Origin: an uncultured Bacilli bacterium
Lineage (GTDB): Bacteria; Bacillota_I; Bacilli_A; RF39; UBA660
DNA: 58,317 bases
Assembly (NCBI GenBank): GCA_947624275.1
Contig: CANQJR010000002.1
Coordinates: 1-58,317 of the forward strand
Reading direction: 5' to 3'
In this document: positions 26,602-52,196 of the stretch, one piece after another
Position numbering within the stretch: the stretch's first letter is position 1
Layout of the letters: every line of letters begins with the position of its first letter
Notes under the pieces: model-generated
What the model saw: the letters and a program-made list of their open reading frames with translations, nothing else
Told to the model about the DNA's origin: nothing
Database searches by the model: none
Program-made: the position numbers and the translations under genes

Positions 26602-28464
26602 TCATTTCACCTTCTTCACCATATCGTCTTTAATGGAGGTGAAATTATCATTGGTCAATTTCATGCCACTGGTAAGACAATACAATAGTGCTCCTTCTCT
26701 TTTTTCAATGCCATTTTCTTTCAATAGGCTATAATTTCGCAAAAATTTAGGTCGAGAGATGACGACGTCACCGACGCGATAAACGTATTCATTATTGGCA
26801 ACACCAAAATCATTTTCCATTGTTTTTACTACTTCATCATCTAAAATGGCTGGATCAAATGACGGAGAAATAGAATTTTCAACAATGGAATTATAAAGAG
26901 AATAATTGGGAATGTTTTGTGATAGGGAAATAAAATTTTCTCTATTGATCTGTTCTGTCTTAGCGCGTCCCTTTTCTGATGCGACACTCGCAATAAATGA
27001 TGATGACAGATTGCCTTCAAAACCTAAATTGTTAGAGAAAATAGTCTCATAATAATCTTGGCTATTCATCATCTGTTTGAAATAAGAAGCGATGGTCAAG
27101 AAGTCATCGTTCAATCGTAACAAAACTGATGGATAGCGATGCGCATAGTTGGTTCGACCATAACTAGAAGAAACATCGCCATGTAATAATCCCAATTCGA
27201 TCAATTGATCACATTTTTCTTCGATGTTAGAAGTCGTCAATGAGGAAATGGGGAATTTGGACAAATCTTGACGATTTTCAAAAAAGCCATATTGTTGTAA
27301 GACTTCATATGAATGTTTTAAATGATAATTTGGTCGACGCAAAATAGACATGTTCTTCTTATCATTGATGGAAGCGTAGAACCCTTTGGAGAGAAGAAAA
27401 CGTTCATTCTCAATAATTTCATCAGCGGATATTTGATGGGCAACAGTTGACAATCGGTGATTTTCTTGAGGCAATAAGATCTTTTTATTGTGGCGTTTAC
27501 GCCTCGATTCTTGCTTGTAATCATTGACAATCCAAGCACTTGGCATCGTGAAGAAACCGCTGTCAAAACTTCCCCTTTTGATCATCCTATTGATCTGTTC
27601 TTCAACGCTTTCCTTATTACCATAAATAGCTATGGTCACTAAAGTCAATTGTTCATCTTTAAAACGTTGTAATAGACTCAAATCCAAGCCATCCAACTTG
27701 GCCTCTTTCAAACTCGTCAAAACTTCACGGATGTTGTCGATATCAGCATTATTCATTATTTCATTCGCATTGCTTTTAATGATTTTTTCAACATAAGGGT
27801 CATCCGTAAACTCCTTGAAAACAGCTAAGACATTTTCAATGGAAACTTTTTCTCTCTTTTGTACATTGTCGTTGTATGAATTAAATTTTATCAATACCTC
27901 TTTCTTAGTATCATTGGGTATCTTGGGACTGGTGATGATCGTTCTATAGATCAAATTCAAATCCTCATCATCCAAGGCGCTTTTCCCCGCCTTTATTTTC
28001 CCAATTAGATCATCATAAGAAATGATGTCATCCTGTAACTGTTCCATTCTTTTCTGTTGGGCAAAATTATTCTGATCAACACTTTCGAGAGTTCGCCCAA
28101 TGCGCTCGTCGACAGTGACCAATTTCGTCAACAAGTCATTGACAAAATCTCTTTGTTCTTGCGTCAAATCAGTAGCTAATCCATCGTGTTTACCCTTTAA
28201 GACTAGATAGATGTGCGATAATTTCTTTTCATAAGCCTTTAAATCAAAATCGTCTAAATTATCTTTCAAGATATTGCCAAGTTGTTCAATTTCTGCATAG
28301 AGAAGATCATCGATATCTCTTCTCAAACTGTCTATTGTATCCTCGACAGTTACTCGATATTGTTTCAATTGTTGAATATAATTTTGATTATCACGCGCAT
28401 CATAATCATTGTACTCTTTATTCAAACGCTTTAATTGTGATTGTAATATTTCGATTAGAGTCAT
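26602..28464 (-). CDS. Hypothetical 620-aa helical protein with three exact 32-residue repeats
   Basis: GGGGTGG RBS before ATG 28464, which lies 1 nt after the stop of the 65-aa gene. N-terminal coiled-coil-like acidic region. Gly of FLLSKGF, VLQQYGF and LIELGL falls at ORF-track residues 369, 401 and 433. Confidence 0.6.
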   Translation of the reverse strand: MTLIEILQSQLKRLNKEYNDYDARDNQNYIQQLKQYRVTVEDTIDSLRRDIDDLLYAEIEQLGNILKDNLDDFDLKAYEKKLSHIYLVLKGKHDGLATDLTQEQRDFVNDLLTKLVTVDERIGRTLESVDQNNFAQQKRMEQLQDDIISYDDLIGKIKAGKSALDDEDLNLIYRTIITSPKIPNDTKKEVLIKFNSYNDNVQKREKVSIENVLAVFKEFTDDPYVEKIIKSNANEIMNNADIDNIREVLTSLKEAKLDGLDLSLLQRFKDEQLTLVTIAIYGNKESVEEQINRMIKRGSFDSGFFTMPSAWIVNDYKQESRRKRHNKKILLPQENHRLSTVAHQISADEIIENERFLLSKGFYASINDKKNMSILRRPNYHLKHSYEVLQQYGFFENRQDLSKFPISSLTTSNIEEKCDQLIELGLLHGDVSSSYGRTNYAHRYPSVLLRLNDDFLTIASYFKQMMNSQDYYETIFSNNLGFEGNLSSSFIASVASEKGRAKTEQINRENFISLSQNIPNYSLYNSIVENSISPSFDPAILDDEVVKTMENDFGVANNEYVYRVGDVVISRPKFLRNYSLLKENGIEKREGALLYCLTSGMKLTNDNFTSIKDDMVKKVK

Positions 28465-28465
28465 C

Positions 28466-28663
28466 TTACCACCCCAATAATAAATCATATGTTTTTAGAT
28501 ATAATGAAAAATCTTTATCGCGAACACGGAATTTAGCGATGAAATCGTCTAGAGTAATGCCAAGGCAAAAAGCTAATTCTTCGATATCGACATTTTTTTC
28601 TTCGATCATTTTTAAACATTGGTTCTTCATATCGATATATAAAGCATCTAAATCGTTACTCAT
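28466..28663 (-). CDS. Small helix-turn-helix protein (Xre-like, antitoxin-sized)
   Basis: 65 aa. DIEELAFCLGITLDDFIAKF fits an HTH. Its ATG overlaps the upstream stop (ATGA). Confidence 0.55.
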   Translation of the reverse strand: MSNDLDALYIDMKNQCLKMIEEKNVDIEELAFCLGITLDDFIAKFRVRDKDFSLYLKTYDLLLGW

Positions 28664-30042
28664 GATAAAGTCACTCCTTTTTCACTGTTCAAGTTGCTAG
28701 CGAATGACTCAGCGAAAGCGGCACTCGCCGTCAAAACTCGTTCATCATTATTTCTGATATCGCCTAGTCTCTTCTTGATTGAATCATCGTATTTATCAAC
28801 GATGTGCTTAGCATTGTCATAAATCTTCGTAGCACTATCTATGTCAAGCAGTAATATCGTATCATCATTAACTCTGATGTAAGTACAAGCCATTTGCCCA
28901 GATTTTTTACAATAGACATGATAATCCGTTTTCTTGGCCATGCGCACTTTGGCATGTGAAGTTTTATTATCATAATCATAAAAACCGTTTTCCAATTTGT
29001 CCAAAAGCATCTTTACGCGCTTGTTATCATCAGTTTTAAAAGCTGATGTATCAAATAGTGGATTACCATCATCGTCTAAAAAGAACACTACTTTAGAAGG
29101 GGATCCATTCTCCTCACGTTCATCTTTTTCAAGTTCAACCATCGTCTCATCAATTTCACCCATGACATCCCCTAATTCCATCATGTATAGACTGACGTCA
29201 TCATAATTGGGTTTGTCACGTTCAAATTCTTTTTCCAAAGCATCGCGCATCTCTATCAATTCGACGACATAGACTAACATGCGCATATCGAGATAATTGT
29301 AGTCATCGAGATTGAAATCGACATTGTCGCGTCTAGCTTCCTTGATGGCATCGACGATGGCTTTAGCGGCCTTGATCTGTTCTTCATTCTTCCCTTCGAC
29401 ATAGCGATAGTTTTTAGAGATTGTCTCATTCAATTTGTCACTGATTTCTCTATAGTTCGCATAAAGAGTACGAACGTCATCTCTTTTTCCCTCTTCTTCA
29501 CCAATTAAGGAAGCGACATCAACAGAAATTTCCGCTTGATCTACACGTTTTGGACAACGCTTCAAAGTCTCGTTCAACAATACCGCAATCTGTTCTTCAT
29601 CAGACAGTTTACTCTGCGATAATAAGTCATTCATATACACGAAGTCATAATCATCACCCTCGATGAGTGGTTTTACTCTTTCTAACTCATCAACTTGTCG
29701 TTCTCGCAAATTTTCTTGATTTGGCAAGTCATCTAAATAATTATCCAAAGCCTTTGATGACAATATCTTATCAATGGCAATGGATACTTGTTCAATATCA
29801 CTGACACCGTTTTCAACAAAATAATTTATAACTTTGATCTGGTCGGCAATTTCATCATCAATTGTCGATAGAATTGGACGCATTTGTAATAAGTTATCAA
29901 CTGTTGGTCTCTTTTTAAAATCGATTATTGATTGTCCATTATCGATAAAAGATTCACATTTAGAAATAGCTCTTTTTAAACTGCGGGCATAATTTTCTAA
30001 ATAATCTTTAAATTTGGCTATTGCACGTTCATCTATTTCCAC
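28660..30042 (-). CDS. Hypothetical acidic helical protein with a possible RelE/HigB/Gp49-like C-terminal domain
   Basis: Start trimmed to GTG 30042 (GGCGAGGTG RBS), because an extended -10 promoter lies inside the longer ORF. The C-terminal segment VVFFLDDDGNP..RVKMLLDKLENG..HAKVRMAKKTDYHVY..ACTYIRVNDDTILLLDI follows the beta-alpha-beta3 pattern of Gp49/HigB toxins. This is a by-eye comparison only. Confidence 0.55.
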   Translation of the reverse strand: MEIDERAIAKFKDYLENYARSLKRAISKCESFIDNGQSIIDFKKRPTVDNLLQMRPILSTIDDEIADQIKVINYFVENGVSDIEQVSIAIDKILSSKALDNYLDDLPNQENLRERQVDELERVKPLIEGDDYDFVYMNDLLSQSKLSDEEQIAVLLNETLKRCPKRVDQAEISVDVASLIGEEEGKRDDVRTLYANYREISDKLNETISKNYRYVEGKNEEQIKAAKAIVDAIKEARRDNVDFNLDDYNYLDMRMLVYVVELIEMRDALEKEFERDKPNYDDVSLYMMELGDVMGEIDETMVELEKDEREENGSPSKVVFFLDDDGNPLFDTSAFKTDDNKRVKMLLDKLENGFYDYDNKTSHAKVRMAKKTDYHVYCKKSGQMACTYIRVNDDTILLLDIDSATKIYDNAKHIVDKYDDSIKKRLGDIRNNDERVLTASAAFAESFASNLNSEKGVTLS

Positions 30043-30069
30043 AATAAACACCTCGCCTATATTACAAAT

Positions 30070-30078
30070 ATTATACCA
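30070..30078 (-). promoter_or_regulatory. Extended -10 promoter of the orphan operon
   Basis: TGgTATAAT on the minus strand, about 28 nt upstream of GTG 30042. Confidence 0.5.
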
Positions 30079-30160
30079 TATATTTCTTTTCGTCATCGAG
30101 TTTTTTCACCAAAGGATGTCTATTTGCGTATAATACACTGTAATTATTAAGGAGGTAATT

Positions 30161-30756
30161 ATGAAAAAAACAATTATCAATATTGCAGTCATCGCATCAA
30201 TATTTTTAATTTTATGTGCTGCAATCCTCAATTTGAACAAAGGCGATAAAAATAGTGATAAAAATTTGACTAAAGTTAGAGTGGCTGAAGTTGCTCATAG
30301 TCTTTTCTATGCTCCCCAATACGCTGCCATCAACAATGGCTATTTCGAAGAAGAGGGACTGGACATAGATTTGACTTTGGCAAGTGGTGCTGATAAAGTT
30401 ACGGCGGCCGTTTTATCAGGCGATGTCGACATCGGTTTTTGTGGTAGTGAAGCAACCATCTACATCTATAATGGTGGCGAAGAAGACTATTTGAAAACTT
30501 TTGCCCAACTCACTCAAAAAGATGGCAGTTTCATCGTGGCAAGAGAAAAACAAGATAACTTCACGCTTCATGATTTGCGAGGAAAATATATCATCGGTGG
30601 ACGAGAAGGTGGTATGCCTGAAATGACATTGGAATGGATATTACGCGAAAATGGCATCGATCCCCAAAAAGATGTGACCATTGATACTAGTATCAGTTTC
30701 GCAGCTATGAGTGGTTCATTCATATCAGGAATAGGTGACTACGTATCATTATTTGA
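30161..30756 (+). pseudogene. NMT1/SsuA-type ABC substrate-binding lipoprotein, N-terminal part (interrupted by island 1)
   Basis: Signal/anchor peptide, then VRVAEVAHSLFYAPQYAAINNGYFEEEGLD...GDYVSLF. After 30756 the frame runs into island sequence (DINAAKRKH*). Confidence 0.85.
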
Positions 30757-30806
30757 TATTAATGCAGCAAAAAGAAAGCACTGAGCATAAAAAAAGATGA
30801 ATCGCT

Positions 30807-31559
30807 TCATCTATCCACTATTTTTCTAATGGCTGAAATTTGAAAATCTGTATTTTTGATAAAACTCTTACAATAATCACATTTGTTACCATGTAGTGCG
30901 GCTCCACAATTAGGACAATTAGTCAATTCTTCACGATTGAAATCCTTTCTAAATTCCACTTCAAATCGCTCAATGGTAGGATTTTCTCTATTACCACTAA
31001 TTATATAGCCATCCTTGTTCAAAGTATAACTTATGTAAGAGACGACGATCATAGCTGAAGCCACTTGTTTAGCGACAGTACTATCAACCTCATACAAGAC
31101 GACCTTTTTTCGTTTTATATCATTTATAACTTTTTTCTTACCAATTTTTAAATTGAGAGCTATACCCGTGTGATATTTTTGAAATAACTGTTCAGTACTC
31201 AACAAGCGCATCTCATTATAATCCAAATTGTTATAGGCATTTTCAAAGCGATAAAATATGTCGTATAAATAATCTTTTAATGAATCGATATCCTCGATAT
31301 TAAAGCGATCTAATTCTTTTTGAGATACATCAGTATAAATATTTTTCTTGCCATGAGTCGTATCTATCTCATTGTTCTTTTTAGAATTTTGATTCACGTC
31401 ATTAAAAACGATCGTCGTTTTAAAATATTTTTCTGAATTAGCTCTTCTAATGGAGTCACAGAGAACTTTTATGATCAAGAAAAAAATGATTAGAGGAGCA
31501 AGTGAGATGGCACTATAAATTAAAAAAGTTATCAAAATAGCAATATCCACAGACAACAA
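30807..31559 (-). CDS. Membrane-anchored Tim44-like/SnoaL-fold protein with a C-terminal zinc ribbon (island 1 cargo)
   Basis: N-terminal TM and a CPNCGA...CDYC ribbon near the C-terminus. The central region resembles Tim44-like domain proteins. This assignment is from memory. Confidence 0.45.
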   Translation of the reverse strand: MLSVDIAILITFLIYSAISLAPLIIFFLIIKVLCDSIRRANSEKYFKTTIVFNDVNQNSKKNNEIDTTHGKKNIYTDVSQKELDRFNIEDIDSLKDYLYDIFYRFENAYNNLDYNEMRLLSTEQLFQKYHTGIALNLKIGKKKVINDIKRKKVVLYEVDSTVAKQVASAMIVVSYISYTLNKDGYIISGNRENPTIERFEVEFRKDFNREELTNCPNCGAALHGNKCDYCKSFIKNTDFQISAIRKIVDR

Positions 31560-31676
31560 CCTACTTTCGTATTACAATTATACCAATATTATATCACAAA
31601 TTGAACAATTATTTATTTTATCGAAACTATTCTTTTTTTATTAGTTAAAATATTGTACAATGATATCGGTGATAAT

Positions 31677-33188
31677 ATGAAAGATAATCGAGAAGTAAGA
31701 GAATATCGCGATAAAGTAGTGAAGATGACTTTTATCATTTTTTTATTGATCAGTTTTATTAGTCCCGTCACAGGAGATGATTGGAAAAACTATGTCATAG
31801 GCAATTCTGGTCTTTTAAACATCTTCAAAAACGTATGGGAAATGTATTTGACTTGGGAGGGAAGAATGGCCAGTAGATTGTTCATAGATTTACTGATACC
31901 ACATAAATTGATATTTTCTACCCTATTTGCTTTACTCATAGCATCATCAACCTACTGCATTTGTAATTTGATGGGAAAAGTGAAGAGAAAAGAGTATTAT
32001 CTAATTCCACTAATTGCTTTATTGTTAGTCAACGTCAACAGTTTTGCCCAAAACTATACTTGGAAGACGGGATGTATCACTTATACCTTTCCTGCTCTGA
32101 TGACCATTTTATACTTCGCCTATATCTTTCAAAAGAAAACGCTCTATTTCGATCTAAAAGAAATAATTGCTCTATCGATAACGGCTTTATTAATCCCAAT
32201 GTTCGTCGAAAATATCGGTCTCAGTTTTGTGTTGGGAAACATCATCTTGACCAGTTTTTACTTCATCAAAAAAAGAAAGATATCATTACCTCTAACCGGT
32301 TTCACCATCATATCAGGAGTTTCTCTAATAGCCATGCTTCTAAGCCCAGGTTCAGCCCTTAGAATGGAGACAGAAACAGCATTTGCTTCCTTGAACCTCT
32401 TCGAAAAAATAGGCACTAATATCCCCAATTTTATTGCCCATGTCTTCACTCATAACTTCATCATAACCCTCTTGATGACGATACCGATTAACTATTATTT
32501 GTCGCGCGTTTTAAAAGGAAAGAAAATTTTCAAGAACTCAGTCATCGCTCTTTTCAACATCGTTCCCCTTTTCAACATCTACTGCAATCTACATGAGATG
32601 ATTCCTGTCAATGTGACATTAGTTTTCAAACCTTATAATGGCATCTTTCTACCATCCAAGTGGTATTTCATCTTCTACTGGATCATCTTCATAACGCTCT
32701 TCATTTTAAGTATCTTTTACATCATAAAAGATCAAAAGAAAAAAGAGATTGTCCTCTTTTTCTACATCATTACCCTAATGTCCAGCATGGCAATGTTACT
32801 ATCACCAGTCTGGGGTGAAAGAGTAGTATTTTTAACCATCTTGGGCAGTATTTTAACAGTATCTATTCTGATAGAAGAAATGCATCTCAAATTATCATTT
32901 AAAAAACTCCATTTTCTATTGATCATCTTGATGATATATTATTTCAGCATCTATACTTTTTCCTATTACATAGATCGTGAAAGAGGTAATTACATCAAAA
33001 AACAGATGCGTGAAAATAGCGATGTAATCGAAGTAATAGCTAATCCCTTTCATCTAGTTTGGAATTATAATCCAGACCTCAATGGACTAATCAATAAATT
33101 GCGATTATACTATGACATACCTAAAGATAAAGAAATCAAATTTGTCTATAGAGGTATCTTTAAAGAGATAGAAGACAAAGTAAAATAA
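31677..33188 (+). CDS. Polytopic membrane protein, possible GT-C type glycosyltransferase (island 1 cargo)
   Basis: At least 12 TM segments, with a GDDW motif in the first predicted external loop as in GT-C enzymes. GGTGA RBS before ATG 31677. Confidence 0.4.
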   Translation: MKDNREVREYRDKVVKMTFIIFLLISFISPVTGDDWKNYVIGNSGLLNIFKNVWEMYLTWEGRMASRLFIDLLIPHKLIFSTLFALLIASSTYCICNLMGKVKRKEYYLIPLIALLLVNVNSFAQNYTWKTGCITYTFPALMTILYFAYIFQKKTLYFDLKEIIALSITALLIPMFVENIGLSFVLGNIILTSFYFIKKRKISLPLTGFTIISGVSLIAMLLSPGSALRMETETAFASLNLFEKIGTNIPNFIAHVFTHNFIITLLMTIPINYYLSRVLKGKKIFKNSVIALFNIVPLFNIYCNLHEMIPVNVTLVFKPYNGIFLPSKWYFIFYWIIFITLFILSIFYIIKDQKKKEIVLFFYIITLMSSMAMLLSPVWGERVVFLTILGSILTVSILIEEMHLKLSFKKLHFLLIILMIYYFSIYTFSYYIDRERGNYIKKQMRENSDVIEVIANPFHLVWNYNPDLNGLINKLRLYYDIPKDKEIKFVYRGIFKEIEDKVK

Positions 33189-33214
33189 AGAGACTTGAAT
33201 TGTCAAGTCTCTTT
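33187..33214. terminator. Bidirectional terminator inside island 1
   Basis: 12-bp stem AAAGAGACTTGA/TCAAGTCTCTTT with a 4-nt loop. Confidence 0.7.
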
Positions 33215-34135
33215 TCATCCCATTATTTGTCCACCGTTATTGTGAATGACTTGACCAGTCATGTAGCTGGAATCATCACTCGCTAAGAAGACAAAAGTAG
33301 GTGCTAGTTCATAGGGCATTGCTCCTCTAGCCATGGCCGCATCGGCTCCTAATGATGGTATTTTTTCTTTGACCCAACAAGAAGGTTGAAGTGGCGTCCA
33401 GAAAAAGCCGGGTGCGATGGCATTTACCCTGATATTTTTCAAAGCTAAATTTCTAGCTAAAGCCCTTGTAAAGCCCACGATTGCCCCTTTAGTAGTAACA
33501 TAATCAATCAATTGTGGATCTCCATAAAAAGTTGTTACTGAAGTTAGGTTGATAATAGACGAACCCGCTTTTAAATGTGGTAATACCTCTTTCGTCAAAT
33601 AGAACATGCCATATACATTGACTTTCATCGTTTGATCAAATTGTTCGTCACTAATATCTTCCAATTTGTTCTGTTGATATTGAACCCCAGCATTATTGAC
33701 TAAAATATCGATCTTGCCAAAACGATCTAAAGTTTGTTCAACGATGTATTTAGAGAACTTTTTATCGATGATATTACCAGATAATAAGAGACATTCCCCT
33801 CCCAGTTTTTCAATATATGCCTTTGTCTCTTCCGCATCTCGATGTTCGTCATAATAAGGAATGACAACTTTTGCTCCCTCTTTGGCAAAAGCGACTGCAC
33901 AAGCTCTTCCCAAACCACTATCGCCACCAGTGATGATGGCAACTTTATCTTTTAATTTGCCACTGCCCTTATAATTGGGATTGTCAAAGACTGGACGAGG
34001 ATTCATCAAGTATTCTAAACCGGGTTGACGTCGCTGTGACTGTTCTGGAGCCATAATTTCATATTCCACACTTTGAATTCCCTTTGGATAATAATAATCA
34101 TAATACTTATTGCCAAATTCATAATTATGTTTCAT
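33215..34135 (-). CDS. SDR-family oxidoreductase (YhdF/YhxC general-stress type; island 1 cargo)
   Basis: TGGDSGLGRA cofactor motif, NNAG, and the long N-terminal leader typical of the GSP39 subgroup. GGAGGAAAA RBS before ATG 34135. Confidence 0.8.
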   Translation of the reverse strand: MKHNYEFGNKYYDYYYPKGIQSVEYEIMAPEQSQRRQPGLEYLMNPRPVFDNPNYKGSGKLKDKVAIITGGDSGLGRACAVAFAKEGAKVVIPYYDEHRDAEETKAYIEKLGGECLLLSGNIIDKKFSKYIVEQTLDRFGKIDILVNNAGVQYQQNKLEDISDEQFDQTMKVNVYGMFYLTKEVLPHLKAGSSIINLTSVTTFYGDPQLIDYVTTKGAIVGFTRALARNLALKNIRVNAIAPGFFWTPLQPSCWVKEKIPSLGADAAMARGAMPYELAPTFVFLASDDSSYMTGQVIHNNGGQIMG

Positions 34136-34166
34136 AATTTTCCTCCAATCTAATATATGTAAAAAA

Positions 34167-35798
34167 TCATTTCTTTTGCCCATTTTGGGAAATTTCATCA
34201 ACTTCTTTTTGATAATGATATTTGACTAAATAATCTATTTCATATCTCTTCGTGCTACTTGTATCAAAACCGCGCTTAAAACGGAAATCTTTCACTATGT
34301 CACTTCCCGTCACATTTAAATATAAATCAACAATTATTTTATCATCGCTTTTATCAATCCAAATTTGATCTATTAAGAGCTTATCAATGTCATCGAGTAT
34401 CTCCTTAGACGACATTCTTTTCGCCAAAGCGTTCTCAACTCTTTCTAAATCTAAATCTTGACTGTGATCTCGGACTATTTCTTTCTCTTTCGTGTTCAAT
34501 TCTTCTCGCTTTTTTAATAGTTCCTCATCCGTTATAATACCATTTAAATTCAATTCTAAAAGATGATTCTTTTTAACTTGGATCTCTTTTAAAGGTTCAG
34601 AGATATCTTCATCAACATTATCCAGATAGATATCTAATAGGGTTTTGATCAATTGCTTTTTAGAAAGAAAAACATCACTCACTGCTGAAATGATGACTTT
34701 TAGTTCACTCTCTCTAACTTTAGGACTGTCACAAAATCTTTTACCACTAGTCAAATACTTGGAACAGACCCAAGTCATATCGCTCTTTTTTTTTCGAAAA
34801 TGGCGCTTATAAAATGGCTTATGACAGTGGGCACAGTATATTTTACCATTATAGATATCAGAATCGACATTTTTGGTGCGCTCATTTCGTCTACTATGGC
34901 TTTTCTGATGAGCTAAATCCCAAGTTTGTTCTGTGATGATCGGTGGTATTTTTTGAACATCCTCATAAACGATCCATTCTTCTTCAGGCAAATGTTTTAC
35001 TCTTTTAGTCATATAATCGACGACTTCTACTTTTTTTCCACAATAATAACCTTTATATTTAGGATTTTTAATGATTCTCGATATCGATGTAGAAGACCAA
35101 TTCTTGTTTTGCCTAGTCTTAATGCCATCATAATTCAGTCTTCGACTTATGGCATTGAAAGATAGATCATCAATTATGTACATATCATATATCTTCTTGA
35201 TGACTGTTGCCTCTTCTTCAATTATTTTAAGATTTCCTGTGACACGATCTTTCTTATATCCATAAAGCATATCATTTCCTAAAATGTGACCATTTTCTTG
35301 GGAACGATGCATACCAAACTTCACTCGCTCAGATAACCTCCTAACCTCGTCTTGAGCAAGAGAAGCCATTATAGTAAGTCTTAGCTCACTGTCTGGCAAA
35401 AAGGTATTTATGTTGTCATTTAAGAAGAAGACTGCCACGCCACGATTCAACAATTCACGCGTGTATTTGATACTATCAAGAGTATTTCTAGAAAAGCGCG
35501 AAATCTCTTTAGTGATTATCAAATCAAATTTATTTTTTTTACTATCCGCAATCATGCGCATAAAGTTTTCTCGTCTGACGTCACTAGTACCAGTTATTCC
35601 TTCATCGACATACCCTTCGACATATTGCCAATTGCTGTTATCTTTGATCATTTTTTCAAAATGTTCATTTTGATTATTGAGCGATTGAATTTGTTCTAAG
35701 TGATCTGTTGAAACTCTAGAATAGTAAGTGACCCGCAATTCTAAATCTTTTAGATTATATCCCATATTTAATTTTTGTCGCATTTCTAATAGATCCAT
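34167..35798 (-). CDS. Large serine recombinase (island 1 integrase)
   Basis: Resolvase catalytic domain (YSRVSTDHLEQ, DLIITKEISRFSRN), recombinase domain, Cys-rich zinc beta-ribbon (C.HC...C) and a long C-terminal coiled-coil-like region. Confidence 0.9.
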   Translation of the reverse strand: MDLLEMRQKLNMGYNLKDLELRVTYYSRVSTDHLEQIQSLNNQNEHFEKMIKDNSNWQYVEGYVDEGITGTSDVRRENFMRMIADSKKNKFDLIITKEISRFSRNTLDSIKYTRELLNRGVAVFFLNDNINTFLPDSELRLTIMASLAQDEVRRLSERVKFGMHRSQENGHILGNDMLYGYKKDRVTGNLKIIEEEATVIKKIYDMYIIDDLSFNAISRRLNYDGIKTRQNKNWSSTSISRIIKNPKYKGYYCGKKVEVVDYMTKRVKHLPEEEWIVYEDVQKIPPIITEQTWDLAHQKSHSRRNERTKNVDSDIYNGKIYCAHCHKPFYKRHFRKKKSDMTWVCSKYLTSGKRFCDSPKVRESELKVIISAVSDVFLSKKQLIKTLLDIYLDNVDEDISEPLKEIQVKKNHLLELNLNGIITDEELLKKREELNTKEKEIVRDHSQDLDLERVENALAKRMSSKEILDDIDKLLIDQIWIDKSDDKIIVDLYLNVTGSDIVKDFRFKRGFDTSSTKRYEIDYLVKYHYQKEVDEISQNGQKK

Positions 35799-36059
35799 GT
35801 CATTCACTTCTCCGCCAGATTTCTCTCTCCGCTTTCCGATATAAATAATAGGATATATAAGATTCGTCATATAGGTCTTTATTTAGAATTAAGAGGAGCT
35901 GATAATAAATATTTTTATTCATAGTACATCATATGTCAAAAAAAGTTATTTCATCAAAAGATTATGATTTATTATTGTAAACATCAATTATTAGTTTTAA
36001 TTTTTGAAGTGATATTGCACTTTAAACAATTTTTAGCGTTTTCGTATTGTAACACTGAG

Positions 36060-36471
36060 TGAACCTAATGCTTTAGAAGTAGAAAAAGAAGGTTATGGTC
36101 ATGTAGTGGCATCTCTTGGACAATTGGGTGGTGTTGTCCCATACACATCATATAATGCTAAAATCAGTTATATCAAAGAGAACAGGGATATAATTGTCAA
36201 ATTCACTCGTGCAATTCAAAAAGGATTAGATTTTGTCAATAATAGTGATAGTGAAACCATTGCCAAAGCTATTGTAAATTTCTTTCCAGATACATCATTA
36301 GATGACTTAACTAAAGTGGTAGATAGATACAAGAAACAAGATAGTTGGCCAACGACGACATCTTTTAGTAAGAAATCGTTTGACCACTTACAAGAGATAA
36401 TGACATCAGCTGGACATTTGGACAAAAAAGTTCCTTATGAAGATTTGATCTATCAAATAGATGAAAAATAA
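36060..36471 (+). pseudogene. NMT1/SsuA-type binding protein, C-terminal part
   Basis: In-frame continuation EPNALEVEKEGYGHVVASLGQLGGVVPYTSY... to a stop that overlaps the ATPase ATG at 36461. Confidence 0.85.
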
Positions 36472-37039
36472 TATCTTAACGATTAAAAATTTAAAAAAGA
36501 TATATCACGATACTAAAGGTGAAACATTAGCAATCGATGATATATCTTTGGACATCAAAGAAAAAGACTTTATATCTATTGTAGGGCCATCTGGTTGCGG
36601 TAAATCAACACTTCTATCGATTTTAGCCGGTTTAGAGACAAAATCGGATGGACAAATAATCAGTGCTGACAATTTACGAATTGGTTATATGTTACAAAGT
36701 GACTCATTGTTTCCTTGGCGAACAGTTTTAGAAAATTGTCTATTAGGCTTAGAAATAAATCGAGAACTCAATGATGAAAATAAAGAGAGAGTCATAAACT
36801 TGTTAAAATCTTATGGTCTCTATGAGTTCAAAGACAAATATCCGTGCAATCTATCTGGTGGTATGCGCCAAAGAGTTGCCTTGATCAGAACATTAGCTAT
36901 CAATCCAGATATTTTATTATTGGATGAACCTTTCTCAGCACTAGATTATCAAACGCGTCTATCACTTGCTGATGACGTAGCGAATATCATAAAAAAGGAA
37001 AATAAGACAACTATTATGGTTACTCATGACCTAGCTGAA
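36461..37039 (+). pseudogene. NitT/TauT-family ABC ATPase, N-terminal part (interrupted by island 2)
   Basis: GPSGCGKST, LSGGMRQRVAL, LLLDEPFSALD and MVTHDLAE. After 37039 the frame enters island sequence (LIFQLT*). Confidence 0.9.
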
Positions 37040-37065
37040 CTCATTTTCCAATTGACATAAATTTA
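37040..37065. repeat. Island 2 left terminal inverted repeat (attP P' arm)
   Basis: CTCATTTTCCAATTGACATAAATTTA matches the reverse complement of 40147-40172 at 20 of 26 positions in exact register (hand count). Confidence 0.75.
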
Positions 37066-38376
37066 TTTGACAACTATCCAAGCATTTGGCAAACTGCGAA
37101 TAGTGCGTTGATATCCATTCCATGGATTGTTGACGTATTTGTTATTCTCGACGAGAGCTGTAGAAGTACCACCATCCAAGTTAGCTGCATTATAAGCCCC
37201 ATAATTAGCCATTATTTTGGCAACGTCAGCATAACTTGCTCCATAACTTCCCGGTTGATTACCACCATCGATGACCAAGAACAAAACGATACCATCTTTG
37301 CGTTGACCAATGACACTGCGCGAAGTTCCCCAAGTGAAGTTTTTAACATTGGCAAACTTATTTTTACCATTGACAATTAAGAATGGTCCCCAATCCATCG
37401 CATCTCTGATACCCATCTTTAATGCTTCTTCTTTGCTCATGTTTTTGAGTACCAAACGATTGTCTTTAGTAAATCCGATGAGTCCACCACTATTGATGCC
37501 TCTTCTGAATTCGCTCAACACTTTACCATCTTTGATGACGAGACCATGGGGAATACCACCATTGCTGTTCCAATAAGGATCATAAAAACCACCAGCATTC
37601 ATTGCTATCAACGCCTTATTTTTCTTGGCGATGATTGATAGTATTTCACCATATGCTCCATCATGGGTACCCGCCCCACTCGATGTAGCAATTTTCACTT
37701 TGGAAGGATCGTATATGGCTACTAAATAACCGCGATATTTATAATTTGCGCCAATCGTCGTACCATTGATTTTAATTATTTTATATAGATCATCTTCATT
37801 TTCTTTTGAAAGAATCTGTTCTTCATATTTATTGGCATAAATTTTTTGATTGTACTCAACTTTTTCAAATTCAATTTTATTACTGCTCTCCAACTCCGTC
37901 TTAGTCTCTTCTTTAGCCTGCATCAAAGTCTCATCAATCGTCTTGGCACTGAACAACCACGTCGCAAAATATTGATGATCCTTAGTCTTCATCGCGCTAT
38001 CAATGATATAATTGCGAATCTGACTATTGCTTCCATATAGTATTAAACCAATTATTAAAAAGAGAACGACATAGAGTGAAGACAAAGCTAATTTGATCAT
38101 TTTAGAAATCATATTATTGGGCTTTTTTATCTCATCGACAATTCCATAAACTAAAAGGACACTAAATACTAAAATTCCCACAAGACAAAAAGAACTTATG
38201 CGTTCGTTGACCAAATCATAACTGTGGAGAGATATGATGTAAGTCAAGACTAAAATGGGTAATAAAATTACTGATATTAACAAAAGTTTATTATCAAAAA
38301 AAGAAAGACTATCACGAGATACTTCTTTTTTATTCTTTTCATTCATATGTCGTTGTCTAATATTGGGGTATCTCAT
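37063..38376 (-). CDS. Phosphodiester glycosidase family protein (DUF2233-type) with an N-terminal membrane region (island 2 cargo)
   Basis: C-terminal domain with AMNAGGFYDP...GGIPHGLVIKDGKV...GPFLIVNGK...NLDGGTST, typical of the family. Confidence 0.75.
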   Translation of the reverse strand: MRYPNIRQRHMNEKNKKEVSRDSLSFFDNKLLLISVILLPILVLTYIISLHSYDLVNERISSFCLVGILVFSVLLVYGIVDEIKKPNNMISKMIKLALSSLYVVLFLIIGLILYGSNSQIRNYIIDSAMKTKDHQYFATWLFSAKTIDETLMQAKEETKTELESSNKIEFEKVEYNQKIYANKYEEQILSKENEDDLYKIIKINGTTIGANYKYRGYLVAIYDPSKVKIATSSGAGTHDGAYGEILSIIAKKNKALIAMNAGGFYDPYWNSNGGIPHGLVIKDGKVLSEFRRGINSGGLIGFTKDNRLVLKNMSKEEALKMGIRDAMDWGPFLIVNGKNKFANVKNFTWGTSRSVIGQRKDGIVLFLVIDGGNQPGSYGASYADVAKIMANYGAYNAANLDGGTSTALVENNKYVNNPWNGYQRTIRSLPNAWIVVK

Positions 38377-38387
38377 GTCTTTCTCCT

Positions 38388-38942
38388 TTACTTTATTACA
38401 CCGGAATGTTCTCCATTGCTATCAGCATCGATATAACTATCATAAAATGAAGTGCTATACTTTTTGAGATCTGTATCACTCCACTCGTTATAATCATCGA
38501 TTCTTCTATTGTATTCGCGAACTAGCGAAACATAAGCATTGACGATTGCTTCATAATTATGATTTATCGCTGAACACTTCTCATCGATATCATAATCATT
38601 ATAATTTCTAGCTGAGCATTCATAACGCAATTTTTTAGTCATCGTATCCAATGCTTTGATCTGTTCTTCAATATTTTTTAATTCTTTGATATTTTGTTCA
38701 TAGCGATATTTTATATCAGAATAATACTTGGCATCAAAAACCGTTGTATCCTTTATCTGATAAGAAATCTTTTCTAAATCAATCGCATAAGAATTGTAGC
38801 TGTTCTTAATTAAGTTCGCAGCTGCATTACTCATTTTGACATCGAGGCTATAACCATCGACAAAACTGATTGAATAACCGATTACAATCAAAACAAATGC
38901 TACAATTATAGTAACACTTGAAATTACTCTCACTCTCTTCAC
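38388..38942 (-). CDS. Hypothetical membrane-anchored protein (island 2 cargo)
   Basis: 184 aa. N-terminal TM, then a helical Tyr/Asn-rich domain. 11 nt upstream of the glycosidase gene. Confidence 0.5.
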   Translation of the reverse strand: MKRVRVISSVTIIVAFVLIVIGYSISFVDGYSLDVKMSNAAANLIKNSYNSYAIDLEKISYQIKDTTVFDAKYYSDIKYRYEQNIKELKNIEEQIKALDTMTKKLRYECSARNYNDYDIDEKCSAINHNYEAIVNAYVSLVREYNRRIDDYNEWSDTDLKKYSTSFYDSYIDADSNGEHSGVIK

Positions 38943-39038
38943 GTTACTCGCCTCTCTATTATAAAGTATACAATTATTTAAATATTAAATAAAGAAAAAA
39001 ATAATAATTTTACAGTATATTTTGCTCAATTGTAAAAT

Positions 39039-40124
39039 TTAATAATGGTTTATCTCCAATTGTTTATCTAAAGAGATAATTTTAATTTTCTTTATTTTTT
39101 CTTGAACGAAATGCTCTTTGAAAGAAGAAGTCTCATTGGCAATGTTTAAGTATTTATCTAAATACCTATGACTCACACTTTTAAAATCACAATTATGATT
39201 ATGACAGATGTAATTTATGTAACATTTGCCATGGAAATAAGTCCTTTTAGTCGCCATTCTTTGGTGACAGAGGCACTCCAATTTATTTGAATAATATGCA
39301 TCGCTTTTTGTGCGCAAACGATTTTGCAATTTCTCTCTCACTTCATAATATTGCTTTTCATCAATTATTTGTGTATGTCTTCCAACTGTTTCAAAGTAAT
39401 GATTAGTATTTATTCCATATCGCACTTTACCAATGTAATTGGGATTGGTCAAAATATTAATAATGTTTTTAGTCGTCCATTGTCTGTTCTTTTTGGTGTG
39501 AACCTTTTGACCATTCAGTTTTTTAGCTATGTCTGTAATACTAGTACCATTCAAATACATGGCAAAAATGTCTTTCACTATTTTGCTCTCTGATCGTTCA
39601 ACGGTTTGAACTTTTTCGCCTTTAGAACGACTATAACCATAAGAGGGAGTAGAACTGCACAAGCTATAACCTTCTCGCACCTTTCTCTCCAAACCAACTT
39701 TGATTCTCTCCACGATGGTCTCACGTTCAAATTCGGCAAATAAACCGATTATTTTGACAAACATTCTCCCCGCTGGTGAAGCAGTATCAATTGCTTCAGT
39801 CAATGAATTAAAAGCACAATTACAAGCTTGAAACAATTCGATCAAATCGATTAAATCCTTAGTCGATCTAGTCAGACGATCTATTTTATAGACCAAAACG
39901 TTATTGACTTGGGAACTCTTGACATCAGCAATCAATCTTTGAACTTCGCTCCTGTTCAAATTTTTACCACTTATACCTTCATCAATATATATGTCATAAA
40001 TTTCCCATTCTTTTATTTTGGCATAACTCATCAGTTTTTCTCTTTGAGCTCGTACTGAATAGCCATGCTTAGCCTGTTCCTCAGTAGAAACTCTAATATA
40101 TATACCAGTTTTAAAATCACTCAT
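39039..40124 (-). CDS. Serine recombinase, short form (island 2 integrase)
   Basis: 361 aa. GIYIRVSTEEQ catalytic Ser, VYKIDRLTRS, a recombinase domain and a Cys/His-rich ribbon (CLCHQ...CYINYICHNHNC), with very little sequence after it. Confidence 0.9.
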   Translation of the reverse strand: MSDFKTGIYIRVSTEEQAKHGYSVRAQREKLMSYAKIKEWEIYDIYIDEGISGKNLNRSEVQRLIADVKSSQVNNVLVYKIDRLTRSTKDLIDLIELFQACNCAFNSLTEAIDTASPAGRMFVKIIGLFAEFERETIVERIKVGLERKVREGYSLCSSTPSYGYSRSKGEKVQTVERSESKIVKDIFAMYLNGTSITDIAKKLNGQKVHTKKNRQWTTKNIINILTNPNYIGKVRYGINTNHYFETVGRHTQIIDEKQYYEVREKLQNRLRTKSDAYYSNKLECLCHQRMATKRTYFHGKCYINYICHNHNCDFKSVSHRYLDKYLNIANETSSFKEHFVQEKIKKIKIISLDKQLEINHY

Positions 40125-40146
40125 ATTTCATTCTATTTATTTGTTT

Positions 40147-40172
40147 TAAATTTATGCTAATGCGAATATAAG
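40147..40172. repeat. Island 2 right terminal inverted repeat (attP P arm)
   Basis: TAAATTTATGCTAATGCGAATATAAG is the partner of 37040-37065. Confidence 0.75.
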
Positions 40173-40350
40173 TGAAGCAATAAGTCTCTCAGACAAAATA
40201 ATCGTCTTGTCCAAAAGGCCTTCAACCATTAAAACTGTTCATGAAATAGAGGTCGACAAAACTTTATCCCCAACCCAAAGAAGAAGGAATAAAATGTTCA
40301 ATATTTATTACGATCAAATTTGGAAGGAGATAGATAATAATGTACAGTGA
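40173..40350 (+). pseudogene. NitT/TauT-family ABC ATPase, C-terminal part
   Basis: (S)EAISLSDKIIVLSKRPSTIKTVHEIEV... The stop overlaps the permease ATG at 40340. This segment is not in the supplied ORF track because it has no start codon. Confidence 0.85.
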
Positions 40351-41131
40351 AGAACATGTTCAATTTTTAAAAAAAATAAAGCTCCATAAATTCTTGGTAC
40401 TATTAGCCCAATTCTTAACATTGATAATCTTTTTAACGATATGGGAGTTATTGTCCAAATACGAAATCATCAACCCTTTTTTATATTCATCACCAATCAA
40501 AGCTGTTCAAACCATCAGCCAATTATTCCAGAGTAACGATTTAATAAATCACATTTATGTGACTTCATATGAAACTGTCATAAGTTTCATCCTCGCTTCC
40601 ATAATTGGCTTTGGTGTCAGCACCATTCTTTGGTGGAACAGATTTATCTTTGAAGTTATCGATCCATATCTAACTGTTTTGAACTCTCTTCCCAAAGTAG
40701 CTCTTGGACCACTTATAATCATTTGGGTTGGCGCAACGACCAAATCCATCATAATAATGGCATTACTCATATCCACTTTTATTAGTATTATCAATATCTA
40801 TAATGGTTTCATATCGGTCGATAGCAATTTGATAACACTTATGAAGAGTATGAAAGCTAGTAAATTGCAAGTTTTTTACAAAGTGATATTGCCCAGTAAT
40901 TTACACAATATCATAAACGCTTTTAAAATAAATATTAGTATGTCCCTAATCGGGGTCATCATGGGAGAATTATTGGTATCAAAAGAGGGATTGGGATATT
41001 TGATCATGTATGGATCACAAGTCTTCAACATCAATTTAGTCATCACTTCAGTAATATTACTAGCAATTCTCTCCTATGTCATGTATGCAGTTATTGTGTT
41101 CATCGAAAAGAAGACGATAAAAAATCAATAA
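40340..41131 (+). CDS. NitT/TauT-family ABC permease (SsuC/TauC-like)
   Basis: 263 aa with six TM segments and a BPD-transporter EAA-like loop (LMKSMKASKLQVFYKVILP). Confidence 0.85.
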   Translation: MYSEEHVQFLKKIKLHKFLVLLAQFLTLIIFLTIWELLSKYEIINPFLYSSPIKAVQTISQLFQSNDLINHIYVTSYETVISFILASIIGFGVSTILWWNRFIFEVIDPYLTVLNSLPKVALGPLIIIWVGATTKSIIIMALLISTFISIINIYNGFISVDSNLITLMKSMKASKLQVFYKVILPSNLHNIINAFKINISMSLIGVIMGELLVSKEGLGYLIMYGSQVFNINLVITSVILLAILSYVMYAVIVFIEKKTIKNQ

Positions 41132-42676: not shown

Positions 42677-43251
42677 CTACTCAACATTAAAATCAGATAT
42701 TTATCTTTATGTTTTTGACTACAAGTGATTAAGAATAGATTACTGCGACGATCAGTTAAAATGGAAATGCCATCGTTTTTAGCAATCTCTACAATATCAT
42801 ATACCTCATACACATACTTATTGTTTTGATAATAGAGATAGGCCAAATCGCTTTCTTGCATTTTGACTAGATCATTAAAATATGATTGTTTGCCTGTCCC
42901 TGAATGGGCCGCAATGTAGATGTTGCCCTCTTCATCAGGATGAACTGAGCCCTTTAAAATAGTGACATTTTTATCGATATTATTATCGGGATCATCAATG
43001 CTTAAGATTCCCTTTTTCAAGTTGATTTTAGGCAGTTCTAAAACCAATTCATAGTTTATTATTGGTGATTTAGACACTTCTTTTTTCAAATTGGGAGTAT
43101 CATCTATTTCTTTCACCTCATAAATGATACTTTTCTCCTCAATCAATCGCTGTTGTTCATCTCTATACCTAATGATGAAAATATTTAATAACTGTAAGAG
43201 AATGAGTGCTGCCAATACGACTATTGCTACTCTAATGACATTTTTTAACAT
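42667..43251 (-). CDS. Sortase (class not assigned)
   Basis: N-terminal TM, IAAHSG (catalytic His region), LITCS (TLxTC Cys) and a late Arg. It overlaps the adhesin gene by 20 nt. Confidence 0.8.
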   Translation of the reverse strand: MLKNVIRVAIVVLAALILLQLLNIFIIRYRDEQQRLIEEKSIIYEVKEIDDTPNLKKEVSKSPIINYELVLELPKINLKKGILSIDDPDNNIDKNVTILKGSVHPDEEGNIYIAAHSGTGKQSYFNDLVKMQESDLAYLYYQNNKYVYEVYDIVEIAKNDGISILTDRRSNLFLITCSQKHKDKYLILMLSRKS

Positions 43252-44716
43252 ACATCAAAATACATCCTAAAAGAGCTATCGATGTCATGATCAAATCAAA
43301 AGCGATATCATTTGTGCTGTGTTGATAAGTATCAGGTACTTTTAAATCATTTAAATAGTATTCGATCAGATTGGGACTCTTTTCATCAATGGTTATTTTA
43401 AAGTCATCCACTTTGGCATAACCATCTGTCGTATTTACTTGATGAAGTGTGTAACTGCCGTATGGCAAATCGAATTCAACTGTCCCATATTCATCAGTCG
43501 TAACTTCTTGATAGATCTCTCCTCGGGAATCAATTATTTGAAAAGTGATGTTTTTCTCAACTATTTTTTTATCATTTTCAGATTCAAAAAATTTATGAAG
43601 TTTTACTTTCTTCTCAATGACTTTATTATTTAAAACGATTTCTACTACTTTATTATCGCTATCAATAGTAACATCATAAGTTTCATCATCGACTTCATAA
43701 CCCTTGCCACTACTTTTCTCTTTTATCTTATATTTACCATATTTCAAATTGGATAGACTGCCCGTGTTATCTTCAGAGATTTCTATTTCCCCGACCAAAT
43801 TACCACCTTCGTCAAAGACCTCATAAATAGCTCCTATTAAACTGCCTTCACCACGTGGTACTGTCGAATTATTATCCTGGTCTAACTTAATGATTTTAAT
43901 TTCACCGCTATCAACGATTACATTTAAATTGGAAGTGATGGTATCATAACTCCCCACTGTCAAAACATTTTGATAAGTATCACTTATATAAACGATGGGT
44001 ACACTGTTATAAGTAGTATCCTTTTTTAATAATTTTATATCGATATCTTCCTTATTTTCATGACTATTAATCAATAGTTTATTATCACTTATCACGACAT
44101 CTATATCATCATTTTTGACTACTTCATAATCTTTTAAAACATTATTTTCATCCACTAATGTCAAAGATGAGGTGATAGACATGTCATAAGTTTTATTTAT
44201 GAATGACGGTTGGACATCATGATTATTTACCAAATTATCGAGTTCCTGCATCTCTTTTTCAAATTTAGTAACTTTTTTACCTTTAAATGTATCAGTCCAA
44301 TAAAAATCAGCTTTTGTATCAATCGTTTTCCAAATCATGATTTGGGTAATTGAATACCATTTATCCGCTGTATGATTCTTATAACCATAACCGTAGTAGG
44401 CCAAAAGGCTAATCCTTTTCCATTTAGCTTTAGACATGGATAATAGTTTCTCGTAATTGGCATCATATCCCGTGTAATTGGTATTTTCTGCCAAATTGAC
44501 AAAAGGTTCAATGCAATAGATTATCTTTTTATCAGAAGAACGGCGCATAAATCTGGCCTGTCGATAAGAAGTAGAACCATTTTTAGTCTTCGCATAGTAA
44601 AGATTATCTATGTCTTCAGACACGACAAATTTATCAGTATAACTCTTAGCAAAAACATCTGTTTTAAGACCCATAAATAATGATAGTATCATCAATAGTA
44701 ATATTAACTTCTTCAT
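43232..44716 (-). CDS. Thioester-domain (TED) adhesin with two SpaA/Cna-B-like domains and a C-terminal anchor
   Basis: Signal peptide, YCIEP (Cys68) and TQIMIW (Gln125), matching the TED Cys...TQxA(I/V)W pattern. Two G.Y.L.E......GY domains. C-terminal VPDTY, a hydrophobic segment, then KKCH. Confidence 0.7.
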   Translation of the reverse strand: MKKLILLLMILSLFMGLKTDVFAKSYTDKFVVSEDIDNLYYAKTKNGSTSYRQARFMRRSSDKKIIYCIEPFVNLAENTNYTGYDANYEKLLSMSKAKWKRISLLAYYGYGYKNHTADKWYSITQIMIWKTIDTKADFYWTDTFKGKKVTKFEKEMQELDNLVNNHDVQPSFINKTYDMSITSSLTLVDENNVLKDYEVVKNDDIDVVISDNKLLINSHENKEDIDIKLLKKDTTYNSVPIVYISDTYQNVLTVGSYDTITSNLNVIVDSGEIKIIKLDQDNNSTVPRGEGSLIGAIYEVFDEGGNLVGEIEISEDNTGSLSNLKYGKYKIKEKSSGKGYEVDDETYDVTIDSDNKVVEIVLNNKVIEKKVKLHKFFESENDKKIVEKNITFQIIDSRGEIYQEVTTDEYGTVEFDLPYGSYTLHQVNTTDGYAKVDDFKITIDEKSPNLIEYYLNDLKVPDTYQHSTNDIAFDLIMTSIALLGCILMYVKKCH

Positions 44717-44777
44717 ATTCCTCCTTCATTACCATCAATACTATCATTACCCATAGCCAACCCCATTTCCTACTGAA

Positions 44778-44800
44778 AATAAAAAAAGCCCTTAGGCTTT
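44778..44800 (-). terminator. Terminator after helD
   Basis: AAAGCC taag GGCTTT followed by a T-run on the minus strand. Confidence 0.6.
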
Positions 44801-46841: not shown

Positions 46842-46941
46842 AAATACCTCCCTAAACAAAAAACGAACTGTTTAAAGCTCGTCATTATTATATCATCAAG
46901 TTGTAACTTGAGCACTGTAATATGAAATATACACCAATTTT

Positions 46942-52183: not shown

Positions 52184-52196
52184 ATCTATTTACCTC

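Follow-up and report, generated by a model that had tools for sequence, protein, structure and literature searches.

Two different serine-recombinase islands split adjacent genes of an ABC importer operon that is cut repeatedly among uncultured gut Bacilli

Why should one small importer operon be cut twice, in adjacent genes, by two different mobile islands? The question is raised by contig CANQJR010000002.1 of assembly GCA_947624275.1, from an uncultured Bacilli bacterium (GTDB RF39; UBA660), which was analysed over its whole length of 58,317 nt on the forward strand and is called the window below. Its chromosome carries a three-gene operon for a NitT/TauT-type ATP-binding cassette (ABC) importer, recognized by Pfam and NCBIfam domain searches and encoding a binding protein, an ATPase and a permease; the first two genes are each split by an island with its own serine recombinase gene. 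We favor, at a probability of roughly 0.62, the explanation that two unrelated site-specific cargo islands were inserted independently by their own recombinases and knock out an operon that is dispensable but conserved. That a serine-recombinase island inserts into a gene is ordinary biology. Less ordinary is the use of a single small operon as a landing site by about eight element families in an uncultured gut order, where it is often cut two or three times, and we found no description of such a shared operon landing pad in the literature searched.

Precise insertions in two adjacent importer genes

The operon and its interruptions are arranged as follows, in positions of the window.

30161-30756, plus strand: 5′ part of the binding-protein gene (NMT1/SsuA-like), codons 1-198 plus two bases
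30754-30756: attL1 core, TGA, the same bases recurring at 36060-36062
30757-36062: island 1, 5306 bp, of a family aimed at codon 198 of the binding-protein gene
36060-36062: attR1 core, TGA
36063-36471, plus strand: 3′ part of the binding-protein gene, last base of codon 199, codons 200-334 and stop
36461-37039, plus strand: 5′ part of the ATPase gene, codons 1-193, with Walker A, signature, Walker B and H-loop
37036-37039: attL2 core, TGAA, the same bases recurring at 40173-40176, dyad centre on GA
37040-40176: island 2, 3137 bp, of a family aimed at ATPase codon 193 (H-loop)
40173-40176: attR2 core, TGAA
40177-40350, plus strand: 3′ part of the ATPase gene, codons 194-250 and stop
40340-41131, plus strand: permease gene (BPD_transp_1), uninterrupted in the window and cut at about codon 205 in other species

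Both splits (30161-30756/36063-36471 and 36461-37039/40177-40350) were found by reading the junctions directly and from a listing of open reading frames (ORFs). Left unjoined, the binding-protein frame runs past ...GDYVSLF into island DNA and stops at 30784 with the tail DINAAKRKH, and the ATPase frame stops at 37060 with the tail LIFQLT. Joining 30161-30756 to 36063-36471 yields a 334-aa protein, and joining 36461-37039 to 40177-40350 yields a 250-aa ATPase. An earlier note on this DNA had placed the splits here and predicted proteins of these lengths, and the junction reading and gap-free alignments confirm it; a join at 30754/36061 gives the same binding protein as one at 30756/36063, because TGA is common to both junctions.

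The joined products align as single proteins. The binding protein matches eight intact orthologues at 69-75% identity without a gap, the residues LFEP across its junction are invariant in that alignment, and its NMT1/THI5-like and NMT1_2 domains cross the junction. For the ATPase, alignment with the intact protein of locus L002 shows no gap across MVTHDLAE^AISLS (here and below ^ marks the junction, and L- and P-numbers denote loci or contigs of relatives and related proteins), and intact ATPases of 248-249 aa cover 99-100% of it at 77-80% identity. Its stop codon (40348-40350) lies just past the permease ATG at 40340. The N and C fragments are therefore contiguous parts of single proteins, and removal of the islands restores the reading frames, as had been proposed; the empty-site string predicted beforehand, GACCTAGCTGAAGCAATAAGT, occurs verbatim in the uninterrupted operon of L002. 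The four gene fragments and the permease contain no stops or frameshifts and retain their invariant residues. No pointer to the substrate emerged: an Rfam search found no riboswitch or other element upstream of the operon that would identify it, and every NCBIfam match fell under its cut-off.

The gaps, expected at about 5.3 and 3.1 kb with a serine recombinase at each right edge in the same orientation, measure 5306 and 3137 bp, and both recombinase genes are on the minus strand. The contents of the islands are these.

30807-31559, minus strand: 250-aa membrane protein of island 1, with a weak, sub-threshold Tim44-like match and a Cys-rich motif at its C terminus
31653-33188, plus strand: DUF6056 polytopic membrane protein of island 1, 511 aa (Pfam)
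33215-34201, minus strand: short-chain dehydrogenase/reductase (SDR) of island 1, PRK06701-like by domain searches
34167-35798, minus strand: LSR1, large serine recombinase, 543 aa, at the right edge of island 1
37063-38376, minus strand: NAGPA-type phosphodiester glycosidase of island 2, 437 aa, with an N-terminal membrane region
38388-38942, minus strand: membrane-anchored 184-aa protein of island 2, of no recognized family, always paired with the NAGPA gene
39039-40124, minus strand: LSR2, serine recombinase, 361 aa, at the right edge of island 2

With recombinases only about 27% identical and precise insertions, these are two different serine-recombinase islands in adjacent genes, in agreement with the earlier note. 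LSR1, whose likely start is the ATG after the ribosome-binding site GGAGGTGAA in an open frame reaching 35870, has Resolvase (PF00239, 4.7e-30), Recombinase (PF07508) and Zn_ribbon_recom (PF13408) domains, and its translation carries RVST and RFSRN motifs that match the catalytic columns of LSR2. LSR2 has Resolvase (PF00239, 7.2e-42) and Recombinase (PF07508) domains, and its residues S13, R11, D82, R83 and R86 are invariant in an alignment of 30 sequences (LSR2 and 29 homologues). A catalytic-domain profile run over the whole window detected LSR1 and LSR2 only. The predicted att sites of both islands have the anatomy expected of serine integrases, namely a short core, a central dinucleotide, an imperfect dyad and precise insertion. 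The reconstructed attP1 shows dyad symmetry at 14 of 26 positions, centred on GA, which is probably the crossover dinucleotide of island 1; in the reconstructed attP2 the symmetry extends to 19 of 26 positions, with its centre on the GA of TGAA. The predicted junction strings are ...GTATCATTATTTGAACCTAATGCTTTAG... for attB1, ...GTAACACTGAGTGATATTAATGCAGCAAAA... for attP1, ...CATGACCTAGCTGAAGCAATAAGTCTC... for attB2 and ...GAATATAAGTGAACTCATTTTCCAATTG... for attP2.

Every island ORF of at least 40 aa was assigned to a recombinase, a membrane or secreted protein, or the SDR. Searches with Pfam, NCBIfam, PHROG and PADLOC revealed no phage structural, replication, conjugation or defence genes in the cargo of either island; Pfam identified no relaxase domain in any island ORF, the 250-aa membrane protein had no PHROG or PADLOC match, and the nearest phage integrases to the island recombinases were at most 42% identical in the phage collection searched. 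This sustains the part of the earlier description that excluded phage structural, replication and conjugation genes. The part that called all cargo envelope-type does not stand, because the SDR of island 1 is a cytoplasmic-type enzyme. No directionality factor gene was apparent among island 1 ORFs of at least 40 aa, and island 2 has no ORF resembling one and no room for such a gene. To our knowledge directionality factors share no common signature, so that their absence cannot be proven. Homologues of the cargo also adjoin the operon in other genomes: the SDR in L032 (12659-13585) and L049 (5019-5945), at 79-81% identity with no recombinase nearby, and the NAGPA gene with its membrane partner in L044 (7892-9844) and L068 (2364-4317), at 49-53% with no recombinase close. 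Their positions suggest either capture of neighbouring genes by the islands or survival of these homologues as remnants of islands.

As long as both islands are integrated the importer would not be made, because the C-terminal lobe is missing from the binding protein and the strands past the H-loop are missing from the ATPase. We considered whether the truncated 199-aa ATPase, which retains all catalytic motifs, might still work; this is unlikely, because core strands past the H-loop are missing.

The operon as a hot spot in related species

We surveyed one genome per species with the binding-protein alignment as query and obtained 80 loci from uncultured gut Bacilli, in taxa that include Candidatus Faecimonas, Ca. 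Onthousia and CAG:1193. Candidatus Faecimonas is assigned to the GTDB order RF39 (PMC8035907). The loci were distributed as follows.

39 of 80 loci: operon uninterrupted
19 of 80 loci: ATPase cut after LSGGMRQRVA (codon 140)
2 of 80 loci: ATPase cut at codon 193
1 of 80 loci: ATPase cut at codon 159 by a prophage-like insert
6 of 80 loci: permease cut at codon 205
2 of 80 loci: contig ends within the ATPase gene
11 of 80 loci: lone binding-protein gene

Among the 67 assessable species, the operon is cut in 28 (about 40%), and the uninterrupted form that the earlier note advised seeking in relatives is present in 39. The 11 binding-protein loci without an ATPase gene were considered as interruptions and rejected, because a terminator-like hairpin lies right past the stop and is followed by unrelated genes; they look like orphan paralogues. 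Other sources added three sites in the binding-protein gene, at about codon 105 (L099, L100, L102), at about codon 150 (L131, L134) and at codon 198, the site of island 1. We count about eight cut sites across the three genes of the operon, each with its own recombinase family. Across the 80 loci, the catalytic-domain profile detected 14 serine recombinase genes inside or after the cut operon and none in 567 kb of flanking DNA upstream.

The islands of the window belong to families that occupy the same codons elsewhere. Short homologous recombinases (53-68% identity) lie at the same ATPase codon in L003, L042, L124-126, L127 and L128-130. Their islands keep a common gene set (recombinase, membrane-anchored protein, NAGPA and sometimes a PAP2-like protein), with the NAGPA protein 41-67% identical in the sister islands, and their arms are conserved (left ...GCTGAA^CT(C/T)A..., right ...TGAA^GC(A/G/T)ATAAGT). 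Recombinases of the island 1 family, 48-72% identical, occur at the same binding-protein codon in L083, L084, L085, L103, L127 and L128, where the junctions read ...TATTTGA^T..TAA(T/C)GC... and ...GA^ACCTAATGC....

Multiple occupancy also recurs. The earlier note regarded a stack of two islands within one operon as unusual, but the same double interruption is found in L127 and L128/L129, and L131, like L124, is multiply cut, its binding protein and permease being interrupted by other elements. Within the species of the window, exact-sequence look-ups of the permease, LSR2 and a 567-aa form of LSR1 returned no contigs, and a cluster look-up yielded L135, an ENA contig from a second sample that is 99.67% identical to window positions 35800-37307. 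Because this independent contig spans both attR1 and attL2, we regard the double interruption as real and not as an assembly artefact. In L124 (7781-13000), as in L125 and L126, the ATPase gene is in three pieces, separated by two different islands at codons 140 and 193; the middle piece of L124 comprises 59 codons (137-195), is 90% identical to the window and lies between an island 2 relative and a recombinase of the codon-140 type.

What makes this operon so frequent a target? Ranked by nucleotide conservation within the operon, six of the seven sites tested fall at the 82nd-98th percentile, and the island 2 site falls at the 50th. The best-supported cause is conservation of the target combined with tolerance of its loss: the operon would be hit so often because it offers long-conserved stretches of DNA in genes that the cell can lose without dying. 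On such a conserved yet loss-tolerant target, elements aimed at the operon would therefore be expected to persist and to co-diverge with their hosts.

Cargo differs among family members, ranging over metal-efflux ATPases, pilin and sortase, and envelope enzymes. Islands of the codon-140 family are 4-9 kb long, are bounded by the terminal inverted repeats TGAATGTTGTTAAGACAC / GTGTCTTAACAATATTCA and encode recombinases of 519-536 aa; carriers include L013, L019, L030, L035, L040, L054 and L055. A pair of 726-aa and 617-aa ORFs is common to six of these loci (L019, L030, L035, L040, L054, L055). In L030 the pair encodes two heavy-metal P-type ATPases, an ArsR regulator gene comes next, and the recombinase has a DUF4368 tail. 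The codon-150 island of the binding-protein gene carries a sortase and a SpaA-type pilin (L131, 2650-7320; L134, 1276-6365). The insert of L021 (5970-15477), which cuts the ATPase after LLLDEPF (codon 159), is prophage-like, with large tail-type proteins and a possible amidase. Genes resembling LSR1 (45%) and LSR2 (46-49%) lie close together on two contigs without the importer operon (L089, 10001-13652; L091, 10001-19406). Downstream of the intact binding-protein gene of L007 there is a degenerate second copy of its 3′ part (10291-10520); this copy starts at codon 195, near where island 1 inserts, and is possibly the footprint of an old insertion or replacement.

A large serine recombinase without the coiled-coil

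In studied integrases the coiled-coil insert mediates synapsis and directionality. LSR2 and dozens of relatives of 355-381 aa are 49-51% identical to homologues of 486-529 aa and can be aligned with them throughout except at one gap of about 100 aa, immediately past the zinc-ribbon cysteines, in the region of that insert. Past the last cysteine LSR2 has only 49 residues, whereas LSR1 and the enzymes of the codon-140 and codon-205 families have 145-187. The conserved cysteine cluster of LSR2 (C284, C286, C307, C312) and modelled beta-hairpins represent the zinc-ribbon part. In the AlphaFold model (mean predicted local distance difference test score, pLDDT, 83.9), the region holds two short helices and no long helical hairpin, and the modelled fold matches the structures of the SPbeta, Bxb1 and LI integrases. 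LSR2 is a natural large serine recombinase that lacks the coiled-coil. The literature searched contained nothing relevant on naturally coiled-coil-less large serine recombinases, which is weak evidence of absence. In LSR1, the 187-aa tail past the zinc-ribbon cysteines probably holds a coiled-coil, and that enzyme would for this reason need a directionality factor.

Experiments on other integrases indicate what the loss of the coiled-coil may entail. LI integrase from which it was deleted has weak activity on both attP x attB (PxB) and attL x attR (LxR) and has lost directionality, and the corresponding deletion abolishes the activity of phiC31 integrase (PMC5499577, PMC10754689). By analogy, LSR2 may catalyse both directions of the reaction with no partner protein, given the missing coiled-coil, the result with LI and the lack of an ORF resembling a directionality factor in island 2. 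Such enzymes could reveal how directionality is controlled, or given up, in nature, and may represent compact tools of about 360 aa with defined sites of 40-50 bp, for which attB, attP, attL and attR are all predicted.

The 355-381 aa enzymes form a sizeable natural family (relatives P0122-P0177), and the recombinases at codons 105 and 150 of the binding-protein gene (about 370-400 aa; L100, 10001-11110, and L131, 2650-3849) are also short-tailed.

Mobility, residence and competing explanations

Closely related loci that differ in occupancy provide a view of how the elements move. L131, with an occupied permease gene, and L132, in which the site is empty, are 99.2% identical over 2137 bp up to a break directly after TTAATTGG. 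L003, with an island 2 relative of 1888 bp, and the empty L002 are 89-95% identical, and at the junction, the location of the TGAA core, the two alignment blocks share 4 nt. In the ATPase tree, carriers are interleaved with lineages that have an intact gene. From these empty and occupied pairs among close relatives, the elements appear to come and go precisely, so that insertion would be reversible at least on an evolutionary time scale. Under the explanation we favor, the serine recombinase of each island inserted it at a fixed position within a coding sequence, and recombination of attL with attR by that enzyme would restore each gene exactly.

Several observations weigh against simple knockout. 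Recombinase identity tracks host identity (r = 0.83, 15 pairs), and synonymous divergence (dS) of recombinases and cargo (0.25-0.64) is of the same order as that of host genes (0.35-0.79). Such co-divergence agrees with long residence, and a gene that had lain dead for so long should have acquired stop codons. In an 11-species clade whose members are all cut at codon 140, the ratio of nonsynonymous to synonymous divergence (dN/dS) is 0.14 for the ATPase N fragment and 0.11 for the C fragment, versus 0.12 for the binding protein, at dS values of 0.4-0.9. Among four island 2 carriers, where synonymous sites are saturated or nearly so in most comparisons of other genes, two measurable pairs of the ATPase N fragment give 0.07-0.11 (dS 1.2-1.8), the permease 0.09-0.15 and LSR2 0.11-0.23. 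With dN/dS of about 0.1, the split genes remain under purifying selection. Moreover, both samples of the species of the window are occupied at the inner junctions. Selection, co-divergence and dual occupancy fit a retained function that needs excision; frequent gain and loss, combined with selection on the empty alleles, would also account for the same observations.

The alternative that survives best, though we consider it unlikely, is that the islands are programmed gene-intervening elements: long-resident and vertically inherited, with regulated excision that rebuilds the importer genes when needed, in a sporulating mother cell or in a subpopulation after the manner of phase variation. Known elements of the sporulation class are skin in sigK, SPbeta in spsM and gin in gerE of Bacillus cereus (PMC4191935, PMC5595907, PMC5025042). 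Like the islands, they place a large serine recombinase element inside a coding sequence where precise excision would rebuild the gene, and they persist long in a lineage; the non-prophage gin (PMC5595907), which demonstrates that gene-intervening elements need not be prophage-like, is by analogy the closest described counterpart. Programming would account for purifying selection on split fragments across clades in which all members are carriers, for recombinases and cargo that co-diverge with host genes, and for the double interruption kept in the window, L127 and L128. Excision of island 2, which has no room for a directionality factor gene, would then fall to LSR2 without such a factor, as the weak two-way activity of coiled-coil-deleted LI integrase would allow (PMC5499577, PMC10754689), and RF39, the order of the relative Candidatus Faecimonas, is predicted to be able to sporulate (PMC8035907, PMC10868615).

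Yet the target here is a nutrient importer, whereas the sporulation elements sit in genes of the mother cell. Simultaneous action of two or three unrelated recombinases would be required, and the tail of LSR1 implies a need for a directionality factor, of which island 1 shows none. The islands also differ from the sporulation elements in size (3.1 and 5.3 kb versus 28.6 kb for gin) and in that several unrelated elements are stacked in one operon. Turnover of cargo and a patchy distribution are what selfish islands typically show, and the binding-protein gene has decayed in L128, where only codons 140-202 of its 5′ part remain. The comparison with skin and sigK drawn in the earlier note fails because the NitT/TauT-type importer is no sporulation gene. 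No sporulation genes were found among the window ORFs scanned with Pfam, which lie outside 43232-57824. The note's other proposal, a two-key reversible switch, is not demonstrated by these data: no directionality factor gene is apparent, and L128 has lost most of the 5′ part of one of the genes to be switched. A programmed switch recruited by the host is possible, and we saw no evidence of one.

A narrower and more doubtful form of this idea is that RF39-like gut Bacilli keep the importer functional in the long term although it is split, and that coiled-coil-less recombinases (LSR2 and probably two other short families) toggle it by excision and re-integration without a directionality factor. 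Were this so, the toggling importer would constitute a gene-intervening system that is neither sporulation- nor phage-based, and one possible benefit would be that the cell evades a phage or bacteriocin whose receptor is the transporter, with the gene kept in reserve. The purifying selection and co-divergence raise the question of gene-intervening elements outside sporulation.

That the locus is fixed and dead, with immobile relic islands, inactive recombinases and an importer operon that is a pseudogene cluster being lost, we consider improbable. Occupied junctions in both samples of the species, the lack of a visible directionality factor, the decay in L128 and the 11 related loci that retain a lone binding-protein gene are what such a locus would present. 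They are opposed by the four open fragments and permease with their invariant residues, by the invariant catalytic residues and low dN/dS of LSR2 (0.11-0.23), by the full-length open frame of LSR1 with its three domains, and by empty and occupied pairs among close relatives in two families. Finally, a chimera in which metagenome misassembly joined the islands to the operon, conceivable for a window that is a whole contig and probably part of a metagenome-assembled genome, is effectively refuted by the independent ENA contig with both inner junctions, by the same architecture in L124-L130 from other studies and by junctions with recombinase-type cores and dyad symmetry.

Independent insertion of unrelated cargo islands, the explanation we favor, has further counterparts among described elements. 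Firmicutes genomic islands and integrative mobilizable elements with serine integrases, including the staphylococcal cassette chromosome (SCC) with its Ccr recombinases, have been reviewed (PMC5704250). Such islands are likewise small and att-bounded, carry variable cargo and use a specific site, which in many cases falls within a conserved gene or at its end. For LSR1 and LSR2 alike, the top NCBIfam matches were CcrB, CcrC and XisF, with scores far under the cut-offs (110-189 bits versus 900 for CcrB/CcrC). Unlike integrative mobilizable elements, the islands had no relaxase or origin of transfer (oriT) that we could find, the latter not being judgeable from sequence alone, and in contrast to SCC their targets are importer genes and not rlmH/orfX. 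They differ from the Firmicutes islands further in that one recombinase family lacks the coiled-coil and that about eight sites in a single operon are used by different families.

Active lysogeny, exemplified by the Listeria prophage in comK, resembles the islands in that a mobile element splits a host gene that reversible excision could control. That element is a prophage with phage genes, whereas the islands have no matches to phage structural families in PHROG or Pfam, and the active-lysogeny comparison raised in the earlier note therefore fails. The catalytic domain of the TP901-1 integrase is about 50% identical to that of LSR2, as estimated by eye from the alignment; TP901-1 and LI (A118-type) integrases carry the coiled-coil insert of about 100 aa, which LSR2 and its relatives of about 355-381 aa do not.

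Beyond the operon, the window is ordinary chromosome with ligA, a UvrD-family (PcrA-like) helicase gene, leuS, and sortase and pilin genes. Two large acidic proteins of 628 aa (26602-28488, minus strand) and 478 aa (28660-30096, minus strand) are encoded immediately upstream of the operon, and searches of Pfam, PHROG and PADLOC matched neither of them. The leuS gene has a T-box leader upstream (14450-14628, minus strand). At the end of the contig are a 5S rRNA gene and the 3′ end of a 23S rRNA gene (57967-58071 and 58137-58317, both minus strand), which indicates that the window is an entire contig that breaks off at an rRNA operon.

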